Origin: an uncultured Actinomycetes bacterium
Lineage (GTDB): Bacteria; Actinomycetota; UBA4738; CALAEC01
Reading direction: 5' to 3'
Length of the DNA stretch: 40,718 bases
Assembly: GCA_937890785.1 (NCBI GenBank)
Contig: CALAEC010000080.1
Coordinates: forward strand, 1 to 40,718
Part shown: positions 1 through 18,588 of the stretch, one piece after another
How the letters are laid out: each line of letters opens with the position of its first letter
How positions within the stretch are numbered: position 1 is the stretch's first letter
Made by a program: the position numbers and the translations under genes
The notes under the pieces: model-generated
Told to the model about the DNA's origin: nothing
The model's database searches: none
The model's input: the letters and a program-made list of their open reading frames with translations, nothing else

Positions 1-254
1 AAGGTCACGGTGGCCACGGCATGGACCAACGAGAACAGCAGCCCGGAGATGGCGCCGATGGCCAGCCCCGCCACCGGCCCCCAGTTGATGGCCCCCCAGG
101 CCCCCATCACCGTGCCGGTGATCATGAGGCCCTCGAGGCCGATGTTCACGATGCCCGACCGCTCGCTGAACAGCCCGCCCAGCCCGGTCAGGTAGATGAT
201 CGTGAAGTAGGACAGTCCGATGGCGATGGCGGCCCCCAGGTCAAGCAGCGGCAC
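1..254 (-). CDS. ABC transporter permease, second membrane component of the BMP/nucleoside-type importer (N-terminal part only, runs off window start)
   Basis: Absent from ORF track (no stop in window). Reverse-strand reading from GTG at 254 gives VPLLDLGAAIAIGLSYFTIIYLTGLGGLFSERSGIVNIGLEGLMITGTVMGAWGAINWGP... and stays open to position 1. The SERSG-x-NIGLEG motif is typical of this permease family. The GTG overlaps the end of the upstream permease gene. Confidence 0.7.
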   Translation of the reverse strand, partial: MPLLDLGAAIAIGLSYFTIIYLTGLGGLFSERSGIVNIGLEGLMITGTVMGAWGAINWGPVAGLAIGAISGLLFSLVHAVATVT

Positions 255-1418
255 GCGACTCCCCCTCCTCTTCGCGGATCACCTCGGCCTGCCGGCGGAG
301 CTGGACCCGACGAGCGATCTCGTACGCCACCACCACCGAGAGGATCAGGAGGCCCTCCATGATCACCGTGATCTCGCGGGGCAGGTCGGTGGCCACGGCG
401 ATCCCGTCCTCGCCCCGGAACAGGATCCCGAACAGCAGCGCGGCCAGCACGATGCCCACCGGATGATTGCGGCCCAGGAAGGCCACGGCGATCCCGGTGA
501 ACCCCAGGGTGGTCTCGTAGTTCACGCCGAAGAACCCAGCGTCGCCGAGCAGGTAGTTCAGCCCGACGAATCCAGCCAGGGCGCCGGAGATCAGGAACAC
601 CCTGAGCTGGACGGCGCCGATGCCGATCCCCCCGGCCTCGGCGGAGCCGGGTGAGGCGCCCACCGCGCGAGCCTCGTAGCCGAGCCGGGTTCGGTACAGG
701 AGGAACCACACCGCGACAGATGCCAGGAGCGCCAGCGGGAAGAGCCACGTCAGGTGGGCGGACGCTGGGATCTGCTCCTCGAGGCCCAGCGCGGGAGCCA
801 GCGGCGGCATCAGCGCGCTCTCCGAGAACCGATCGCTCCGGAGGTCGACGAACCCCGTGTCGGAGGTCCGCAGCGGATTGAGAAGGGCCCACGCCACCAG
901 GCTGATGGCGATCCCGTTCATCATGATCGTGGTGACGACCTCGTGGGCGCCGGTCTTCACCTTGAGGATGGCCGGGACGAACGCCCAGATCATCGATCCG
1001 GCCACAGCGGCCAGGACCACCAGCGGCAGGTGGATCACCGCGGGGAGGTCGAGCCACACCGCCGCCCCCGTGGCGGTCATCATGCCCACGATGTACTGAC
1101 CCTCGACCCCGATGTTGAACATGCCGGCCTTGAACGCCACGGCCACGGCCAGGGCCGAGAAGATCAGCGGCGTGGCCTGCTCCAGCACCCGGGCCACGTC
1201 CGAGACCCGCGCCGTGGAGAACTGCCACAGCGTCGAGTAGACGAAGCCAGGGCTCTCGCCGTACGCCAGGATGATGACGCTCCCGACGAGCCCGGCGAAC
1301 AAAAAGGCCACGGCCACCGCGATCGACTGCACCAGGAGCTTCTGCGCCCACGGCCGGCGGATCCGGCGGTGGGGAGCGGGCGACGCCGACGGGGCCTCCG
1401 GTCGGGTGGCCACGGCCA

Positions 1419-6263: not shown

Positions 6264-7007
6264 TCAAGCCGCCGGCTTGGTGACCACCCACAGGTCCTCG
6301 GCGGGCCAGTCCCGGGCCCACCGCAGGGAGACGTAGTCCGTGTAGGTCGTGGTGGCGTTTGGGCGCGGGCGCAGGTGGATCAGCCGCTCCACCTCAAGGC
6401 CGCTGTCCCGGAAGAGGCCGACCCACTCGCCATACGGGAGCTGGAACTGGATCGTCTGCTCGTCCTCCTCGCTCCGCATCCCGAACCAGGGCGCGTGGAG
6501 GCGGGTGTCGACCCGTTCGGTCTTCGGGTTCCAGCACATGAACAGGAACGGGCTGGCGACGGAGAAGGCGAACCGGCCCCTGGGCCGGAGGACCCGGGCC
6601 ACCTCGGGCACGGTCCGCTCGGGGTCGGCGAACCCCATGGCGCCGTGATCGGACAGCACGAGGTCGAAGGAGCCATCGCGGAAGGGGAGCTCCTCGGCGC
6701 TGCCGTGGACCAGGGGGATCGTCGCGGTGGCCTCGCGCGCGTGGCGCAGCTGTTCGCCGGAGAGATCGATCCCGACCGGGCGGGCGCCGTCCGCCGCCAG
6801 CGCGATCGACCACTGCGCGGCCCCGCAGCCGAGCTCGAGCACGTTCCGGCCGGCCACCTCGCCGAGCGCCCGGATCTCGGTCTCGGGGATCCGCCACACC
6901 CCCCAGGCCCGGGCCCTCTCGGTGAGACGCTCGCCGTGCTTGGCCTGGTAGCCGGCGGCCATGAAGTCCCAGGTCTTGCGGTTCTGCCGGACGTGCTTCG
7001 AGGGCAC
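6264..7007 (-). CDS. class I SAM-dependent methyltransferase
   Basis: Motif I VLELGCGAAQWS, then GIDLSGEQL, then FDLVLSDHGAMGFADP. Confidence 0.85.
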   Translation of the reverse strand: MPSKHVRQNRKTWDFMAAGYQAKHGERLTERARAWGVWRIPETEIRALGEVAGRNVLELGCGAAQWSIALAADGARPVGIDLSGEQLRHAREATATIPLVHGSAEELPFRDGSFDLVLSDHGAMGFADPERTVPEVARVLRPRGRFAFSVASPFLFMCWNPKTERVDTRLHAPWFGMRSEEDEQTIQFQLPYGEWVGLFRDSGLEVERLIHLRPRPNATTTYTDYVSLRWARDWPAEDLWVVTKPAA

Positions 7008-7033
7008 GGCCGCATCGTACGGGGTTGCCCGAA

Positions 7034-7049
7034 TCGAACACCTGTTCTA
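7034..7049. promoter_or_regulatory. putative LexA SOS (Cheo) box, TCGAAC-ACCT-GTTCTA
   Basis: GAAC(7036-7039)-N4-GTTC(7044-7047), 8 nt upstream of the radical SAM ATG and 27 nt from the divergent methyltransferase start. It overlaps a TANNNT hexamer (TATCCT, 7048-7053). My manual scan found no other GAAC-N4-GTTC in the 40.7 kb. Confidence 0.55.
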
Positions 7050-7056
7050 TCCTTGG

Positions 7057-9147
7057 ATGCCCGTGCGCTGGGACAACCTCCGCCTCGACGTGGACCGGAA
7101 GGACGATCGGGTCACGATCCCCCTGTTCGAGCAGGGCGCGGTGGTCCGGACCTTCGACACGCCCGAGTTCAGGGGGATGACGTTCTACGAGGTCCAGGCG
7201 CGGTCGATCATCAACCGCGTCCCCGATGCCTCATACGTGCCGTTCCGCTGGTCCATCAATCCGTACCGAGGATGCAGCCATGCTTGTGATTACTGCATGG
7301 TCGGGGACACACCCATCCTCATGGCCAATGGGCGAACGAAGCCTATCGCCGACGTAAGGGTCGGGGATCAGATCTGTGGCACGGTCCGGCGGGGAACCTA
7401 TCGCCACTATGCCAAGACCATGGTTCTGGCCCATTGGTCGACGATCAAACAGGCCTACCGGATCAAGCTTGAGGACGGCACGGAACTCGTCGCCAGCGCG
7501 GACCACCGCTTCCTGACCAACAGGGGCTGGAAGCACGTCACCGGAACCGAATGGGGAGCGGATACCCGACCCCACCTCACGACCAACAATAAGTTGATGG
7601 GAACGGGACGTTTCGCTCCGGGCCCCCAAGAGGAATCCGACTACCGACGCGGATACCTCTGCGGAATGGTCCGGGGAGATGGAAGCATCCATTGGAAGAA
7701 GTACACGCGGATGGATGGCACATCAGGTCTCACTGCCACTTTTCGGTTGGCTCTCGCAGACCTTGAGGCTCTGCGTCGCGCCCGCGAGTACCTGATGGGC
7801 TTCGAGGTCGATAGCCGAGAGTTTCTGTTTCAGGCCGCGTCCAAAACCAGGAGAGAACTGCACGCGATCAGTAGCAGCGGCCGGGTCAAGGTCGCAGTTG
7901 TCGAGGACCTCATAGCCTGGCCACCGAAGTCCTCAGTTGAATGGTCGAAGGGATTCCTTGCCGGCATCTTCGACGCTGAGGGTAGCTACAGTCGTGGCGT
8001 CCTTCGTTTTTCCAATACCGCCCTGGACATCCTCGGGGAGATCGCTTCCGCGCTCGACCGACTCGGCTTCGCTTCCCGACTCGAGGTTACGGGCAAACCA
8101 AATGGCCAGTGCACCATCCGAGTGCTCGGAGGGATCCGCGAGGCCCTTCGCTTCTTCCACACCGTCGACCCCGCCATCACCAGGAAACGGTCGATCGAGG
8201 GGCGGGCCATCAAGAGCAATGCCCGGCTAAGGGTCACATCCATCGAGCCCCTGGGCATCGACCTCCCGATGTACGACATCACCACGGGGACCGGCGATTT
8301 CATCGCCAACGGGGTCGTGTCCCACAATTGCTTCGCTCGGAAGACGCACACCTACCTGGACCTCGACTACGGCGAGGACTTCGACACCAAGGTGGTGGTG
8401 AAGGTCAACGCGCCGGAACTGCTGCGGAAGGAGCTGGCCGCCCCGAAGTGGAAGGGCGAGCACATCGCCATGGGCACGAACGTCGACACGTACCAGCGCG
8501 CCGAGGGGCGGTACCGGCTGATGCGCGGCATCCTCGAGGCGCTCCGCGACTTCGCCAACCCGTTCTCGATCCTGACGAAGGGCACGCTGATCCTCCGCGA
8601 CCTCGACCTGCTCCGCGAGTGCGCCGAGGTGACGGACGTCGGCACGAACTTCTCCGTCGGCTCGGTCGACCCCGAGCTGTGGCGCGCCGTCGAGCCCGGC
8701 ACGCCAGCGCCGACCCGCCGCCTGGACGCGGTCCGAAAGCTGAACGAGGCCGGGATCGCCTGTGGCGTCCTGATGGCGCCCATCATCCCGTTCCTCTCCG
8801 ACTCCGACGAGGCCATGGAGGAGACCGTCCGGGCCATCGCCGCGTCCGGCGCCACGCACGTGATGCCGATCGTCCTTCACCTCCGCAAGGGCGGCGCCCG
8901 CGAGTGGTGGATGCGATGGCTCCGCCAGCACCGGCCGGACCTGGTGCCGGAGTACCGGGAGCTGTACGGCGACCGGGCCTACGCGCCCAAGGAGTTCCAG
9001 CAGCAGATCGCCGAGCGGGTTCACTCACTGGCCCGACGGTTCCGGGTCGGCGCGGCAGAGGGACCCCGGCGGGCCAGGCGGATCGCCGCACCCGCTCCGG
9101 AGCCCGAGCAGCTCGCGCTGCCCGAGCCGGCTCAGCGCGCCAGATAG
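7057..9147 (+). CDS. Rv2578c/SplB-like radical SAM protein (DNA-repair-photolyase-like family), intein-containing precursor
   Basis: N-extein ends ...WSINPYRGCSHACDY and C-extein starts CFARKTHTYLDLD..., so removing 7294..8328 restores the canonical CSHACDYCFAR radical SAM motif. Predicted spliced product is about 351 aa. Start ATG 7057 (MPVRWDNL); GTG 7063 is also possible. Confidence 0.9.
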   Translation: MPVRWDNLRLDVDRKDDRVTIPLFEQGAVVRTFDTPEFRGMTFYEVQARSIINRVPDASYVPFRWSINPYRGCSHACDYCMVGDTPILMANGRTKPIADVRVGDQICGTVRRGTYRHYAKTMVLAHWSTIKQAYRIKLEDGTELVASADHRFLTNRGWKHVTGTEWGADTRPHLTTNNKLMGTGRFAPGPQEESDYRRGYLCGMVRGDGSIHWKKYTRMDGTSGLTATFRLALADLEALRRAREYLMGFEVDSREFLFQAASKTRRELHAISSSGRVKVAVVEDLIAWPPKSSVEWSKGFLAGIFDAEGSYSRGVLRFSNTALDILGEIASALDRLGFASRLEVTGKPNGQCTIRVLGGIREALRFFHTVDPAITRKRSIEGRAIKSNARLRVTSIEPLGIDLPMYDITTGTGDFIANGVVSHNCFARKTHTYLDLDYGEDFDTKVVVKVNAPELLRKELAAPKWKGEHIAMGTNVDTYQRAEGRYRLMRGILEALRDFANPFSILTKGTLILRDLDLLRECAEVTDVGTNFSVGSVDPELWRAVEPGTPAPTRRLDAVRKLNEAGIACGVLMAPIIPFLSDSDEAMEETVRAIAASGATHVMPIVLHLRKGGAREWWMRWLRQHRPDLVPEYRELYGDRAYAPKEFQQQIAERVHSLARRFRVGAAEGPRRARRIAAPAPEPEQLALPEPAQRAR
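7294..8328 (+). mobile_element. intein (345 aa, class 1) with LAGLIDADG homing-endonuclease domain
   Basis: Block A CMVGDTPILMANG (Cys1). Block B ELVASADHRFLT. LAGLIDADG motifs GYLCGMVRGDGS (7651-7686) and GFLAGIFDAEGS (7951-7986). Blocks F/G MYDITTGTGDFIANGVVSHN, followed by +1 Cys. Exactly 1035 nt, in frame. Visibly lower GC than the flanking sequence. Confidence 0.9.
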
Positions 9148-10414: not shown

Positions 10415-10678
10415 TCAGCGTCGGGTCCGCCGCTCCCGCTGCCAGCACGCCGTGTGCCAGTGACGGCGGAGGCTCGGATCGTGGTTCGGGACCACGACGA
10501 GGTGCACGGTGCCGGGCCGGATCTCCTGGTCGCACCCCGGGCACCGGTAGGGGCGGTCACCGGTCACCTGGCGCACGGTGACGCCCTCGGCATGCGCCCA
10601 CGCCGGCGCGCTGCTTCCGGTCTGTCGAGGCGACGGCGGTCCGGCGCGTTCGCGAGCGGCACGGTGTCGTCGTGGCAC
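10415..10678 (-). CDS. conserved actinobacterial zinc-ribbon protein (family often mislabelled ATP/GTP-binding protein)
   Basis: (M)PRRHR... N-terminus and YRCPGCDQEIRPGTVHLVV...RRHWHTACW, as I recall for Streptomyces homologues. GTG start at 10678. Confidence 0.7.
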   Translation of the reverse strand: MPRRHRAARERAGPPSPRQTGSSAPAWAHAEGVTVRQVTGDRPYRCPGCDQEIRPGTVHLVVVPNHDPSLRRHWHTACWQRERRTRR

Positions 10679-10700: not shown

Positions 10701-11120
10701 GTGTCTCAGGAGAGCTCCCCCGATCTCGACGAGTTCCGGCATCGCGGTGACGGCCGGTTCCCCGGGGCGCTGGGCGTCGAGGTGGCCGAGGTCGAGCGGG
10801 GCCGGACCCGTATGCTCCTCCAGATCCGCGACCATCACCTCGCCCCCAACGGCTACCTGCACGCCGGTGTGGTGATGGGGCTGGCCGACACGGCATGCGG
10901 CTACGGCTGCGTGGCCAGCCTCCCCGACGGCGCGATCAACTTCGCCACGATCGAGGTCAAGACGAACTTCCTGGGCACGGCGCTCGAGGGGGAGCTCGAG
11001 TGCAAAGCCTGGCTGGTGCACGGGGGGCGGACCACCCAGGTCTGGGACGCCGAGGTCCGATCCGGCGACCTCAGGCTGGCGCTGTTCCGCTGCACCCAGC
11101 TGGTCCTGTACCCGCGCTGA
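10701..11120 (+). CDS. PaaI-family hotdog-fold thioesterase
   Basis: LGVEVAEVERGRTRMLLQIRDHHLAPNGYLHAGVVMGLADTACGYG and VHGGRTTQVWDAEV. Confidence 0.85.
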   Translation: MSQESSPDLDEFRHRGDGRFPGALGVEVAEVERGRTRMLLQIRDHHLAPNGYLHAGVVMGLADTACGYGCVASLPDGAINFATIEVKTNFLGTALEGELECKAWLVHGGRTTQVWDAEVRSGDLRLALFRCTQLVLYPR

Positions 11121-11142
11121 CTACAATTCGCGGAGCGAGGGA

Positions 11143-11162
11143 CGGAGGGCTCGGCTCCTCCG
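11143..11162 (+). terminator. candidate stem-loop after the thioesterase gene
   Basis: CGGAGG-gctcggct-CCTCCG, 23 nt after the stop. 6-bp stem with no clear U-tract. Confidence 0.25.
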
Positions 11163-11305
11163 ATTAGCTCGCCCGGTCGAAGCGCCTTCCCGATGTTGCC
11201 CCCCCGTCGATCAGGAGACTAGGCTGGGCTTGTCCGGTTGGACCGGGCTGGGAGAAACGCATCGATTCCGGAGCTTCGCTCGGGTCTCCCCCCCAGGAGG
11301 CCGTC

Positions 11306-11728
11306 GTGCCCCCGGTCCCCAAGCCGTCCCTGCTCCGACGGGCTTGGCTCGGCTGGGCCGTTGCGGGGACCCTGATCGCGGCGGCGGCCGGCCTGAGCTA
11401 TTGGCTGGTCACCAACACCGAGCGCCTGTCCGACGAGGTGCGCCAGCGTCGCGACGCAGTCGAGATCGCCGAGCGGCGGGTGACCCGTCTCCAGATCCGG
11501 ATTGCCGCGTTGACGGAGGATCAGCAGCAGGCTCGGAAGACCGCCCGGGAGTGCCTCCAGGCAGCGGAAGACGGCCGGGCGTACACGGAGCTTGTGGACG
11601 AGGCCTTCGGCCTAGTCCGAGCTCAGAGCTTCGACCGGGGGGAGGCCACGGCCGAGCGGGCGGACCGGTTCCGCCGGGACAGCAACCGGTCCCTCCGCCA
11701 GTGTCGAGGCACCTCGGCGGGGACCTGA
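11306..11728 (+). CDS. single-pass membrane coiled-coil protein with Cys-x49-Cys module, paralogue 1 of 3
   Basis: GTG start preceded by CCAGGAGG. Basic N-terminus, TM (WLGWAVAGTLIAAAAGLSYWLV), heptad-like charged segment, then C..(49 aa)..C (ARECLQ ... LRQCRG). Confidence 0.7.
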   Translation: MPPVPKPSLLRRAWLGWAVAGTLIAAAAGLSYWLVTNTERLSDEVRQRRDAVEIAERRVTRLQIRIAALTEDQQQARKTARECLQAAEDGRAYTELVDEAFGLVRAQSFDRGEATAERADRFRRDSNRSLRQCRGTSAGT

Positions 11729-11729
11729 C

Positions 11730-12128
11730 GTGCGCTTCCTCCGCAGACCGTTGGTCGCCTGGCTGGTGACCGGAGCGGTCATGGCCGGCGGCAGCGTCGC
11801 CGTGGCCGCCGCAACGGCGGACCGGACGCGAGTGGCAGGGGAACTCGAGGACGTCGAACTGCGGCTCGACATCCTGCGGGGCCGGATCGTGGAGATGGAG
11901 GCTCGGGAGTCAGGTCTGGAACAGGAGGTGGACCGGCTGTCCGATGGGATCGGCCGCTGCGTTTCGAGGATCGATCTCCGGGTCCAGGTGAACAACCGGT
12001 TGGCCCAGGACCTCAAGAGGGCCACGTTCACGAGTCTCTCGCAACTGGATCCGTACGTGGCCCGCGTCGAGCACCTGCACCGCCTCAGCCGTCAGGACCT
12101 GAGGGCCTGTGAGCAGGCGATCGGATGA
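11730..12128 (+). CDS. single-pass membrane coiled-coil protein with Cys-x49-Cys module, paralogue 2 of 3
   Basis: GTG 1 nt after the upstream stop (TGAcGTG). TM (LVAWLVTGAVMAGGSVAVAAA), coiled coil, and IGRCVS ... LRACEQ with identical 49-residue spacing. Confidence 0.7.
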   Translation: MRFLRRPLVAWLVTGAVMAGGSVAVAAATADRTRVAGELEDVELRLDILRGRIVEMEARESGLEQEVDRLSDGIGRCVSRIDLRVQVNNRLAQDLKRATFTSLSQLDPYVARVEHLHRLSRQDLRACEQAIG

Positions 12129-12670
12129 TCTTCGGCGCTCGGGGAGGAGGACCGGTGAGAGGAGAAGACGGAGAGAGCCGCGGAGACACGTCGGAGGTCA
12201 AGGCCCCGATCCCGGCCGCTGGGGCCGTCGGGCCGGTCAAGTCTCCACGACGTCCCCGGTCGCTCTTGGGGTGGCTCGTGGCAGCAGTAACTTGGGCCGT
12301 GGTGGCCTCGGTGGTAGCCGCGATCCTGTTCGCCGGGCGGGGAGACCTCAACGGCGAGGTCGAGCGGTTGCGGCAGGACGTTGCCACTCAGCGAGGGCGC
12401 CTCGACGTCAGGGGGGAGCAGCTCGAGGAGGCCGAGGGCGAGGCCGCCCGCCTCTCGGCGGAGATGGAGGAGTGCCGGGAGGCGAGCCGGGCCAGCCAGC
12501 GGGCCCTGCGTCTGTGGGAGGACTTCGTCATATCCGCAAGAGGTCGACAGGGGTTCGAGACGATCCGGGCGTTCATCCGGCTCCAAGACTTCCGGCGAGA
12601 GTGGGGCCGAACGGCCAAAGCGTGCGTCGGCGAGGGTGCAGAGGTGTTCTTCTCTACCGCCCCAGGATGA
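12125..12670 (+). CDS. single-pass membrane coiled-coil protein with Cys-x49-Cys module, paralogue 3 of 3 (longer cytoplasmic N-terminus)
   Basis: ATGA overlap with paralogue 2. TM (LLGWLVAAVTWAVVASVVAAILFA), coiled coil, and MEECRE ... AKACVG with identical 49-residue spacing. Confidence 0.7.
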   Translation: MIFGARGGGPVRGEDGESRGDTSEVKAPIPAAGAVGPVKSPRRPRSLLGWLVAAVTWAVVASVVAAILFAGRGDLNGEVERLRQDVATQRGRLDVRGEQLEEAEGEAARLSAEMEECREASRASQRALRLWEDFVISARGRQGFETIRAFIRLQDFRREWGRTAKACVGEGAEVFFSTAPG

Positions 12671-13298
12671 ACCGGGCCGCGGCCTCGCCGAGGGCCGTGC
12701 CGGTGCCCTCGTCGTCCCGTTTCTGACCTCGAACCCGGAACGAGTGGTCGCCGCCCTCGATGCGATGGAGCGTGGCCCGCTTTCCGAGGCGGCCCAGCAC
12801 TCCCTCGAGGAGGTCCCACCGGGCGAACGGGTCCGCGGTGCCCTGGAGCCACAGCATCGGGATGCGGATCCGTCCGAGGTGCTCGTCGCGGAGCCGGTCC
12901 GGCTTGCCCGGCGGATGGAGCGGGTACCCCACGAACACGAGGCCGGCCGCATCGAGGTCGCCATCGGCCACCATCATCGACGCGATCCGTCCGCCCATCG
13001 ACTTGCCGCCGGCCCAGACCGGTTCGCCGAGCTCGACGCCGCGAGCGAACGCCGCGGTCCAAGCCGTGCGAAGCAGCGGCTCCCGGTCGGGGCTTCGCCT
13101 CCCGGCCTCTGAGTAGAGGAAATTGAACCGGAGGCACGTCACGCCGGCCGCCGCCAGGCCGGCGGCGAACCCGTCGAGGAAGGGGTTGCGCAGGGTGCCG
13201 CCAGCGCCGTGGGCCAGGACCAGGATCGGCCCCCCACCGGAGCCGTCCTGGACGGCGGAGATCCGGCCGTGGTCCGTCTCGATGGCCCGGCTCGGCAT
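12654..13298 (-). CDS. alpha/beta hydrolase (COG3571 / dienelactone-hydrolase-like)
   Basis: ILVLAHGAGG, nucleophile elbow GGKSMGGRIAS, and LWLQGTADPFA...GGDHSF. Confidence 0.8.
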   Translation of the reverse strand: MPSRAIETDHGRISAVQDGSGGGPILVLAHGAGGTLRNPFLDGFAAGLAAAGVTCLRFNFLYSEAGRRSPDREPLLRTAWTAAFARGVELGEPVWAGGKSMGGRIASMMVADGDLDAAGLVFVGYPLHPPGKPDRLRDEHLGRIRIPMLWLQGTADPFARWDLLEGVLGRLGKRATLHRIEGGDHSFRVRGQKRDDEGTGTALGEAAARFILGR

Positions 13299-13310: not shown

Positions 13311-17445
<4,135 letters not shown>

Positions 17446-17769: not shown

Positions 17770-18588
17770 CTACGACGCGGCGGCCTTGCGGCGCCGGGCC
17801 TGCGTCTTCTTCTTCGGGGGCGCCTTCTTGGTCTGTTCGACGCTCTGCTTCAGGGCTTCCATGAGGTCGACGACCTTCGACGGTTCCGGGGCCTCGATGA
17901 CCTCGATCTCCTCGCCGGCCACCTTCTTCTCCACGATCTCGAGCAGCGCCTCGCGGTACTCGTCGCGGTACGCCGTCGGGTCGAACGACTCGCTGAGATT
18001 CTCGATGAGGCTCTCGGCCATCTGGAGCTCACGGTCGGAGACCTTGACTTCCTTCTCCAGGCCCGGGAGGTCGGCCTCGCGGATCTCGTCCGGCCAGAAC
18101 ATCGTGTCGAGCACCAGCACGTCGTCCATCAGCCGCACCGCGGCCAGGTGCTCCTTGTCGCGGAAGGAGACCTTGGCGATGCCGACCTTGTCGCCCTCGC
18201 GCAGGGAGTCGCGCAGGAGCTGATAGGCCTTGACCCCGGCCTCTTCCGGCCCGAGGTAGTACGTCTTCTTGTAGTAGATCGGGTCGATCTCGGAGCGGTC
18301 GACGAACTGAGCGATGTCGATCGTCCGGGTCGACTCGACGGGCACCGCCTCGAAGTCCTCGTCGTCGAGGATCACGTACCGGTCCTTCTCGTACTCGTAC
18401 CCCTTGACGATCTCGTCGAACGGGACCTCCTGGCCGTCCGTCGAGCAGACCCGCTGGTACTTGATCCTGCCGTGGTCCTTCTCGTGCAGCTGGTTGAACC
18501 GCAGGGTCTTCTCCTCCGTGGCCGTGTACACGCGGACCGGGATCGACACCAGGCCGAAGGAGATGGCGCCCCTCCACATCGTCTTCAT
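17770..18588 (-). CDS. ku: non-homologous end-joining protein Ku
   Basis: MWRGAISFGLVSIPVRVYTAT...LRFNQLH...I.YQRVC, plus the Lys-rich C-terminal tail typical of bacterial Ku. Confidence 0.95.
   Translation of the reverse strand: MKTMWRGAISFGLVSIPVRVYTATEEKTLRFNQLHEKDHGRIKYQRVCSTDGQEVPFDEIVKGYEYEKDRYVILDDEDFEAVPVESTRTIDIAQFVDRSEIDPIYYKKTYYLGPEEAGVKAYQLLRDSLREGDKVGIAKVSFRDKEHLAAVRLMDDVLVLDTMFWPDEIREADLPGLEKEVKVSDRELQMAESLIENLSESFDPTAYRDEYREALLEIVEKKVAGEEIEVIEAPEPSKVVDLMEALKQSVEQTKKAPPKKKTQARRRKAAAS

Follow-up and report, generated by a model that had tools for sequence, protein, structure and literature searches.

We analysed a 40,718-nucleotide (nt) contig from an uncultured Actinomycetes bacterium (CALAEC010000080.1, the whole of which is referred to here as the window) and focused on a cassette of three small genes, A, B and C, at positions 11306-12670. 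On our best reading of the sequences, A, B and C are predicted co-transcribed paralogues of an undescribed family of small bitopic envelope proteins. The genes and the features that define their products are listed below, with proteins measured in amino acids (aa) and the transmembrane segment abbreviated as TM.

11306-11728, plus strand: gene A, 140 aa, GTG start
11730-12128, plus strand: gene B, 132 aa, GTG start 1 nt past the stop of A
12125-12670, plus strand: gene C, 181 aa from ATG 12125, or 171 aa from GTG 12155
11345-11410, plus strand: predicted TM helix of A, residues 14-35, with its hydropathy peak at residues 18-36 and a positive N-flank
11552-11554, plus strand: Cys83 of A (Cys1), at a heptad 'd' core position and in an invariant alignment column
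11702-11704, plus strand: Cys133 of A (Cys2), with the N-R-S-L-x-x-C family motif just before it
11958-11960 and 12108-12110, plus strand: Cys77 and Cys127 of B
12473-12475 and 12623-12625, plus strand: Cys117 and Cys167 of C

The A/B junction reads TGAcGTG (11726-11732) and the B/C junction ATGA (12125-12128), leaving a 1-nt gap between A and B and a 4-nt overlap between B and C. A first-pass annotation of this DNA, made from the letters alone, had described a coupled three-gene cassette, and the open reading frames (ORFs) and both junctions are present exactly as it placed them. An AGGAGG Shine-Dalgarno sequence lies at 11295-11300, 5 nt ahead of the GTG of A. A much better Shine-Dalgarno for C, GGAGGAGGA at 12143-12151, precedes the in-frame GTG 12155, from which the public record for this contig calls C as a protein of 171 aa. 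Because the stronger Shine-Dalgarno fronts GTG 12155, the ATGA overlap is perhaps not the functional start of C. The coupling of B to C through ATGA therefore stands as an overlap in the sequence and is less secure as a mechanism, since C may start at GTG 12155 instead. GTG 12155 lies only 27 nt past the stop of B, and either start would be near enough to that stop for coupled translation. The public gene calls also begin B at an internal ATG, 11781, which gives a protein of 115 aa. Such a start would delete the TM helix and the FLRRPLVAW motif that is conserved in the family alignment, so we favour GTG 11730 and argue that the public call for B is too short. At the other end of the cassette, the last 17 nt of C overlap the 3' end of a convergent hydrolase gene.

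Each of the three proteins contains exactly two cysteines (residues 83 and 133 in A, 77 and 127 in B, and 117 and 167 in C). Counting confirms the identical spacing reported in the first pass, which is C-x49-C in all three (51 residues inclusive); the chance of three identical spacings is ~9e-5 if two cysteines are placed randomly in each protein. Protein A consists of a short basic N-tail with the sequence LLRRAWLGW, a TM segment at residues ~14-35, a heptad stalk (36-82) and a predicted hairpin (83-133). The TM helix of B is at residues ~8-29, and that of C, at residues ~47-70, follows a cytoplasmic tail of ~45 aa that is rich in Gly, Pro, Arg and Glu and predicted to be disordered. There is a single hydrophobic peak in each protein. 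The N-terminal flank of the TM segment carries a net charge of +3 to +4 with zero acidic residues in A, B and C, and the C-terminal flank is neutral or negative. By the positive-inside rule this charge bias indicates an N-in/C-out topology, in agreement with the earlier prediction that the C-terminal part is extracytoplasmic.

Between the TM segment and Cys1 lies a stalk of ~47 residues, in which the strongest hydrophobic period is 3.5 residues. The stalk is an unbroken a/d pattern of six heptads, with mostly Val or Ile at the a positions and mostly Leu at the d positions, and Cys1 occupies the closing 'd' position. A hydrophobic period of 3.4-3.5 residues is found in all 12 family members described below. 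The plan that had been proposed for each protein, namely a basic N-terminus, one TM helix, a heptad-like stretch of about 45 aa and two cysteines, is thus borne out in A, B and C.

Paralogy, family and coding status

Sequence comparisons support A, B and C as paralogues. Pairwise BLASTP is borderline, aligning A with B and A with C at E 0.007-0.008; the B-C match is not significant alone (E 0.26). The three proteins are collinear and nearly gap-free from the TM helix to the C-terminus, their ungapped ectodomain alignments score 4-5 z units above shuffles, and hidden Markov models (HMMs) built from any two of them recover the left-out third at 12-23 bits. These results support the earlier claim of paralogy. 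MAFFT run on A, B and C alone shifts Cys1 of A one heptad out of register, and the addition of homologues gives an essentially ungapped alignment with both Cys columns in line.

Relatives outside the cassette are few. Word-indexed searches with A, B and C across 5.8 billion proteins returned near-identical copies and one further protein, P0004. With the family profile, HMMER was run exhaustively against 1.84 billion cluster representatives and gave 16 hits at E<1e-3 and only about eight family clusters. Beyond self-hits, the true relatives are P0008, P0009, P0012, P0013 and P0015, which are 120-161 aa long and have the full architecture; the other profile hits are long coiled-coil proteins, or TM/coiled-coil proteins that lack the Cys pair. 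A first metagenome scan with C-type patterns found no members, and a scan with the motif LRRxWLxW added L056 and L057. L057 was recovered independently of the profile, and the family HMM gives it 82 bits. The sole annotation among members is 'hypothetical protein', and the members outside this contig all come from metagenome assemblies of 67-71% GC. In these searches the family appears very rare and undescribed, seen so far only in a few uncultured soil actinobacteria. The first-pass annotation had spoken of the triplet across Actinomycetota, a scope that proves overstated for a family so extremely rare and patchy.

An alignment of A, B and C with nine homologues, at 14-32% identity, has the two cysteines as its only invariant columns. 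The first-pass annotation had named loss of the Cys pair in orthologues as a reason to give up its proposal; the orthologues and every distant homologue keep the pair. Eight of the 12 members have a spacing of x49, two of x50 and two of x46. Gaps that can be placed fall between Cys1 and Cys2 near the predicted turn, where P0004 and L054 have a 3-residue gap and P0008 has an extra residue. The stalks of P0012 and L057 are longer by exactly seven residues, or one heptad. Cys2 lies 3-14 residues from the C-terminus and follows an N-R-[ST]-L-x-x-C-like motif. We define the family by these features (a TM helix, a heptad stalk leading to a core Cys1, Cys2 47-51 residues further on, and the motif), and A, B, C and the nine homologues all conform to the definition. 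Paralogues within one cassette diverge as much as members from different genomes do, which implies that the duplications are old and have been retained.

Several members also share a juxtamembrane motif, (F/L)LRR(A/P)(W/L)(L/V)xW, whose twin arginine abuts the hydrophobic segment and gives it a Tat-like look. The (F/L)LRR motif is present in A (residues 9-17), B (residues 3-11), P0008, P0009, L055b, L056 and L057, and is absent or altered in the C-like members and P0015.

Base composition and substitution patterns both indicate that A, B and C are real genes under purifying selection. The GC contents at codon positions 1, 2 and 3 are 0.74/0.56/0.87 in A and 0.74/0.46-0.56/0.79-0.87 across A-C. 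The order GC3>GC1>GC2 is that of the neighbouring genes. A soil-metagenome contig, L049, holds orthologues of B (the C-terminal 63 aa, with the Cys pair kept) and of C (P0004, 61% identical to C from the TM helix to Cys2). Against this contig, dN/dS by the Nei-Gojobori method is 0.23 for the ectodomain of C, 0.49 for its cytoplasmic tail and 0.45 for the C-terminal fragment of B. Assemblies in ENA, JGI and Logan contain several population variants at >=90% identity. Neither cysteine is lost in any of them, and only one position varies among them in the hairpin region of A. High-GC DNA yields many long ORFs, several of which overlap the cassette region, and A-C could on that account be spurious, unexpressed frames of a high-GC intergenic insertion. 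The codon-position pattern is confined to the proposed frames and missing from the overlapping alternatives, however, the dN/dS values are those given above, and the distant homologues keep the architecture together with the Cys pair. This conservation pattern effectively refutes the idea of spurious frames.

Predicted fold, disulfide and assembly

AlphaFold2 (AF2) models of A and C support a shared TM-stalk-hairpin fold. The model of A, computed from a 9-sequence alignment, has a predicted local distance difference test score (pLDDT) of 86 and consists of a helix at residues 9-105, a turn at 106-108 and a second helix at 109-138. The model of C, computed from a 2-sequence alignment, has a mean pLDDT of 67, with a disordered N-tail and values of 70-89 elsewhere; its helices span residues 47-140 and 143-168 on either side of a turn at 141-142. 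In both models the TM helix continues straight into the stalk and then into the first arm of the hairpin. Cys1 and Cys2 are 24 and 26 residues from the turn in A and 24.5 and 25.5 residues from it in C, and these near-equal distances would make them neighbours at the open end of the hairpin. The first-pass annotation had argued for a shared fold from the conserved spacing, and the separate models of A and C agree on one in which the two cysteines face each other. Foldseek comparison of both models with the PDB returned generic or designed helical hairpins only, all at E>1.

Further support for the topology comes from L054, in which the family domain follows a cytoplasmic-type zinc ribbon, a Pro-rich linker and a TM helix; the next gene starts alike. 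In aerobic Actinobacteria a bias towards even numbers of cysteines, as in disulfide-forming organisms, is seen in exported proteins, and these bacteria have Dsb-like oxidoreductases (PMC2823432). Mycobacterial envelope proteins rely on DsbA-VKOR (PMC12421883). This bias and the Dsb/DsbA-VKOR oxidation pathway make an oxidised Cys1-Cys2 staple plausible, and we infer from the models that the disulfide is intramolecular.

These features can be combined in the following mechanism. Each protein would insert so that the N-terminus stays cytoplasmic and one helix crosses the membrane. The TM helix would run unbroken into the six-heptad stalk, which the standard helical rise puts at ~7 nm, and the stalk would pass into the first arm of a ~50-residue antiparallel helical hairpin that adds a head of ~3.5 nm. 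After export, the invariant Cys pair at the open end of the hairpin would be oxidised, probably by the actinobacterial DsbA/MdbA-VKOR pathway, and would staple the return helix to the stalk helix. Stalks would then pair in parallel, for which the pattern of Val/Ile at a and Leu at d is dimer-like. The predicted product, on the outside of the membrane, is a projecting rod of ~10 nm whose head would have four helices, or six if the assembly is trimeric.

In the window the three subunits would be made from one mRNA and would probably mix, and we infer a hetero-oligomer of A, B and C. In genomes with one copy the protein must self-associate. Single-copy members (L057 and L056) indicate that hetero-association is not obligatory for the family and that self-association must suffice. 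The proteins contain neither an enzymatic nor a transport domain; besides the shared architecture they have just variable cytoplasmic tails, which are short and basic, disordered, or a zinc ribbon. On these grounds they would most likely serve the wall zone as an accessory scaffold, a spacer or a platform for docking. We have good confidence in the structural description. The reading as a whole, in which bitopic envelope proteins form parallel bundles with stapled heads and act as scaffolds, we consider evenly poised between right and wrong.

A number of observations weigh against this reading. The AF2 alignments are shallow, with 2 and 9 sequences. The e-g' charges of the stalks do not favour hetero pairs: A-A and C-C look acceptable as homodimers, and only B-B has four repulsive pairs. 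The case for a scaffold is made from the lack of other domains. With its 'd' core position in a parallel coiled coil, Cys1 might just as well bond to its counterpart in another chain (Cys1-Cys1'). Ala and Gly are abundant in the TM segments, the peak Kyte-Doolittle hydropathy of A is only 1.57, and AxA-like motifs follow the TM segment in several members; together these leave room for a cleaved signal peptide.

The core position of Cys1 and the dimer-like a/d stalk lead to the main rival, in which the architecture is the same and the disulfides are intermolecular (Cys1-Cys1', Cys2-Cys2' or between paralogues), giving covalent oligomers. The phage lambda protein Rz offers a precedent, with the same layout and a Cys spacing of 53. 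Both AF2 monomers nevertheless fold back on themselves and place the cysteines nearly equidistant from the turn. The spacing is also held within x46-x50, with its gaps near the turn. An intramolecular constraint explains this directly, and homotypic bonds need no such constraint. We therefore give intermolecular bonding a minor though appreciable chance.

A second rival takes the hydrophobic segment as a cleaved Sec or Tat signal peptide, so that the mature proteins would be soluble, secreted and helical. The twin arginine of the (F/L)LRRxWLxW motif in A-like members abuts the hydrophobic stretch as a Tat signal would have it, the low hydropathy of A and the Ala/Gly-rich composition are in keeping with cleavage, and in B the sequence ATA/D follows the stretch. 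Set against this, the hydrophobic stretch spans 20-24 residues, as a TM helix does, and AF2 joins it to the stalk helix. P0015 and P0012 lack the twin arginine, and in C and P0004 a Pro comes after it. The folded zinc ribbon and long linker upstream of the segment in L054 are unlike signal peptides. Secretion of a soluble product is improbable in our judgement.

Leader, indel and genomic contexts

Two further features describe the cassette as a unit:

11121-12653, plus strand: block absent from the locus of the closest genome (leader with A, B and C), an indel between convergent stop codons
11121-11305, plus strand: non-coding leader of 185 bp, with a possible -10 element TACAAT at 11122-11127 and the AGGAGG at 11295-11300

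A scan of the leader for the sigma-70 consensus found no full promoter. The leader has no match in Rfam, and its RNA structure is not unusual (z +0.54). We compared the locus with 48 related loci anchored on the adjacent GlnD gene. The closest of these belong to metagenome-assembled genomes labelled Actinomycetota, with GlnD identities of 77, 72, 62 and 60%. By tblastn and the family HMM, the cassette is found in none of the 48. The locus with 77% GlnD identity (L004) has the same gene order, with GlnD, alpha/beta hydrolase, PaaI-type thioesterase, esterase and a radical-SAM gene with an intein. Its hydrolase and PaaI-thioesterase stop codons overlap in the sequence CTAG at 13160-13163, with nothing between them. 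Since these flanking stop codons abut, the block at 11121-12653 of the window is best described as a clean indel. Loci L002 and L003 have neither the cassette nor PaaI. We found no terminal direct or inverted repeats, no GC shift relative to the flanks and no integrase or mobility genes at the cassette. Compared with the nearest genome, the leader and the three genes behave as a single block that is either there in full or missing, and the block has its own ribosome-binding site, which fits the self-contained operon proposed in the first pass. By this comparison of gene content the cassette is accessory, not core.

Other members of the family occur in varied surroundings. In L049 the B-to-C order is kept ahead of an FMO-like monooxygenase gene. 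In L055 two tandem paralogues follow a cold-shock gene, L054 has zinc-ribbon tandem copies, and L052 lies beside a divergent PilT-like T2SSE ATPase and rpoD. In L053 and L056 a conserved membrane protein of 103 aa follows, and in L057 a single gene lies between an MFS transporter and an enoyl-CoA hydratase. Members thus occur as one to three tandem copies (L057 and L056 are single-copy in their contigs), and no neighbour is conserved across the contigs. The L054 genes are at 3-329 (minus strand), 557-1174 (plus strand) and 1194-1367 (plus strand), and the divergent upstream gene ends in a Pro-rich region and a TM helix. The protein of ~103 aa at L053:738-971 and L056:1028-1339 (MSRREATGDLSALLDQAAAM…) is hydrophobic in its C-terminal half and matches nothing in Pfam; in the P0009/L056 lineage it could be a partner specific to that lineage.

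In the window the cassette is surrounded by genes for an intein-bearing radical-SAM protein, an esterase, a 4HBT thioesterase, an alpha/beta hydrolase, GlnD and AmtB. Downstream of it, the minus-strand stretch at 13311-17381 encodes the alpha/beta hydrolase (Abhydrolase_11) and then an apparent actinobacterial amtB-glnK-glnD nitrogen operon, of which only AmtB and GlnD are confirmed by Pfam. A Ku gene lies at 17770-18588. With such neighbours, the cassette sits among housekeeping genes. The stretch between hydrolase and esterase (window 10701-11120) is itself an indel hot spot, with neither PaaI nor the cassette in L002 and L003, PaaI only in L004, and both in the window. The L004 esterase is split by a frameshift, and tblastn recovers it in pieces at 13878-14375 and 14380-14898.

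Two other genes of this region deserve description. The radical-SAM protein (window 6961-9147, plus strand, 728 aa) contains an intein that carries a LAGLIDADG homing-endonuclease domain and splits the CxxxCxxC iron-sulfur motif (CSHACDY/C MVGDTPIL … VVSHN/CFARK). Insertion within the motif would make its third Cys the +1 extein residue. The radical-SAM orthologue in L004 likewise carries an intein. Between the esterase and PaaI, an ORF of 87 aa (window 10415-10678, minus strand) contains a CPGC…H…H…C pattern (YRCPGCDQEIRPGTVHLVVVPNHDPSLRRHWHTACW) and is without a Pfam hit; its product may be a small protein that binds zinc.

If the prediction holds, the cassette encodes a compact, self-contained envelope module made of an anchor, a rigid stalk and a disulfide-locked head, without a relative in any curated database and seen only in a few uncultured high-GC soil actinobacteria. 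It would add a testable case to the poorly charted small bitopic proteins of monoderm envelopes, and candidate substrates to the actinobacterial oxidative-folding pathway. The presence or absence of the cassette among very close relatives and the repeated tandem duplication of its genes make it a candidate strain-level surface trait. Its practical impact is limited, because the hosts are uncultured, the distribution is tiny and there is no tie to a known process. The parts of the first-pass interpretation that were open to computation all came out in its favour. We see an orphan family on the familiar bitopic coiled-coil plan of envelope proteins, and not an answer to an open problem.

Comparison with known systems

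The first-pass annotation had recognised no described family, and none emerges from significant matches in Pfam, NCBIfam, PADLOC, PDB sequences or PDB folds. For A-C and then for the family members, all Pfam and NCBIfam scores stay below the model cutoffs and PADLOC yields no consistent result, the matches being sub-threshold coiled-coil or TM noise. The best PDB sequence matches of the family profile are to the human metapneumovirus F protein (E 7e-4 to 3e-3). The pneumovirus F match spans the polybasic cleavage site, the fusion peptide and heptad repeat A, and the parallel in layout is striking. We judge the match compositional, because both proteins have an Ala/Gly-rich hydrophobic segment followed by heptads.

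Among phage proteins, seven of ten members weakly match PHROG 'Rz-like spanin' families (best E 8e-4), with coverage of the TM segment and coiled coil only. These matches, and the fact that the cassette is an indel relative to close relatives, are what could be said for a remnant of a phage lysis module that encodes an inner-membrane spanin (i-spanin), or for other mobile-element cargo. The control proteins P0016 and P0017, which have a TM segment and coiled coil and no Cys domain, match the same PHROGs better (E 5e-5). Comparison by hhalign of the 12-sequence family with lambda Rz, whose sequence was verified at 100% identity against phage Lambda, gives a probability of 0.3%. No ORF with a lipobox behind its start codon, as expected of an outer-membrane spanin (o-spanin), is found in any frame at 11100-12750, and no endolysin, holin or lysis cassette is near the genes. 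Neither integrase nor repeats accompany the cassette, its GC equals that of the flanks, and no relatives were found in IMG/VR, INPHARED phages or PLSDB plasmids. We rejected membership of the Rz-like i-spanins, since the controls reproduce the hits, the hhalign probability is negligible, and both o-spanin and phage context are missing. Origin as a phage remnant or other mobile cargo appears close to refuted by the same sequence comparisons.

The resemblance to Rz is one of architecture only, in that the proteins are predicted to be N-in and bitopic with a coiled coil and conserved cysteines. Lambda Rz is likewise a small N-in, type II bitopic protein with a TM helix, a periplasmic coiled coil, a break and a second helix. 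Its Cys99 and Cys152 are spaced by 53, compared with 47-51 in the family, and in both the cysteines lie at the end of the coiled coil and near the C-terminus. Both would have a disulfide-dependent architecture, which is a prediction for the family. The disulfides of Rz are intermolecular, whereas those of the family are predicted to form an intramolecular staple. We know of no outer membrane in the Actinomycetota hosts that would need spanning. By analogy, the family may work somewhat like an i-spanin stalk, yet without being a member of that group.

Type IV pilus and type II secretion platforms provide a second comparison. The NCBIfam GspM model (NF040576) weakly matches six of 12 members (best E 7e-4), at ~15-20 bits against a cutoff of 60, and the matches are limited to profile positions ~2-95, which cover the N-terminus, the TM segment and the first helix. 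Neither control TM/coiled-coil protein matches GspM, and L052 adjoins the PilT-like T2SSE ATPase, so that the proteins might be accessory subunits of a pilus- or secretion-like platform, analogous to GspM, PilO and PilN. GspM, PilO and PilN share with the family a short cytoplasmic N-terminus, one TM helix and a helical segment, and they are encoded as adjacent paralogues that heterodimerise; the family genes are adjacent paralogues also. The bit scores fall far short of the 60-bit cutoff, however, and the ferredoxin-like periplasmic domain that defines these subunits is absent. In its place is a ~50-residue helical hairpin in all-helical AF2 models, in which the stalk is followed by only ~55 residues. 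Pilus and secretion genes are lacking beside the cassette and in six of the seven other contexts, and comparison of the profile with PDB sequences returned no GspM, PilO or PilN. A place in such a platform is thus very unlikely.

FtsB, FtsL and DivIC suggest another alternative, in which the proteins would be divisome or elongasome linkers that recruit wall-synthesis partners. The plan is the same, with an N-in TM helix passing into a coiled coil, 100-180 aa and paralogue-like partners, and the family profile weakly matches PDB chains of FtsB (E 0.016-0.03). FtsB, FtsL and DivIC form hetero-oligomers of paralogue-like partners and act as a scaffold without an enzymatic domain, through an extracytoplasmic heptad coiled coil. 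A-C have no match to DivIC (PF04977) or FtsL (PF04999) at E<=10, and neither model is among the 25 Pfam families listed for the 12 members. FtsB and FtsL are core genes, universal and in conserved contexts, whereas the family is accessory, extremely rare, missing from the loci of its closest relatives and found in varied contexts. FtsB and FtsL also lack a Cys-stapled hairpin. We regard a divisome or elongasome linker as a distant prospect.

The assembled heads invite comparison with helical bundles. One could imagine A, B and C as an obligate hetero-oligomeric hairpin bundle, with a six- or four-helix head held ~10 nm from the bilayer, that serves an uncultured actinobacterial lineage as a hitherto unknown bacterial device for membrane or envelope apposition, cell-cell contact or measurement of the wall zone. 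Such a device, which we think highly improbable, would resemble the post-fusion core of a class I viral fusion protein or a SNARE bundle. At the level of the hairpin itself, the nearest likenesses are the designed hairpin homo-oligomers 5j2l and 5j0k and the ROP-type bundles, on which the hairpin of the AF2 model superposes to ~1.5 Å over ~67 residues. They are soluble and without a membrane anchor or stalk, and at Foldseek E>1 they are fold analogues only. Like the stapled heads that we propose for the family, these bundles assemble by association of their hairpins.

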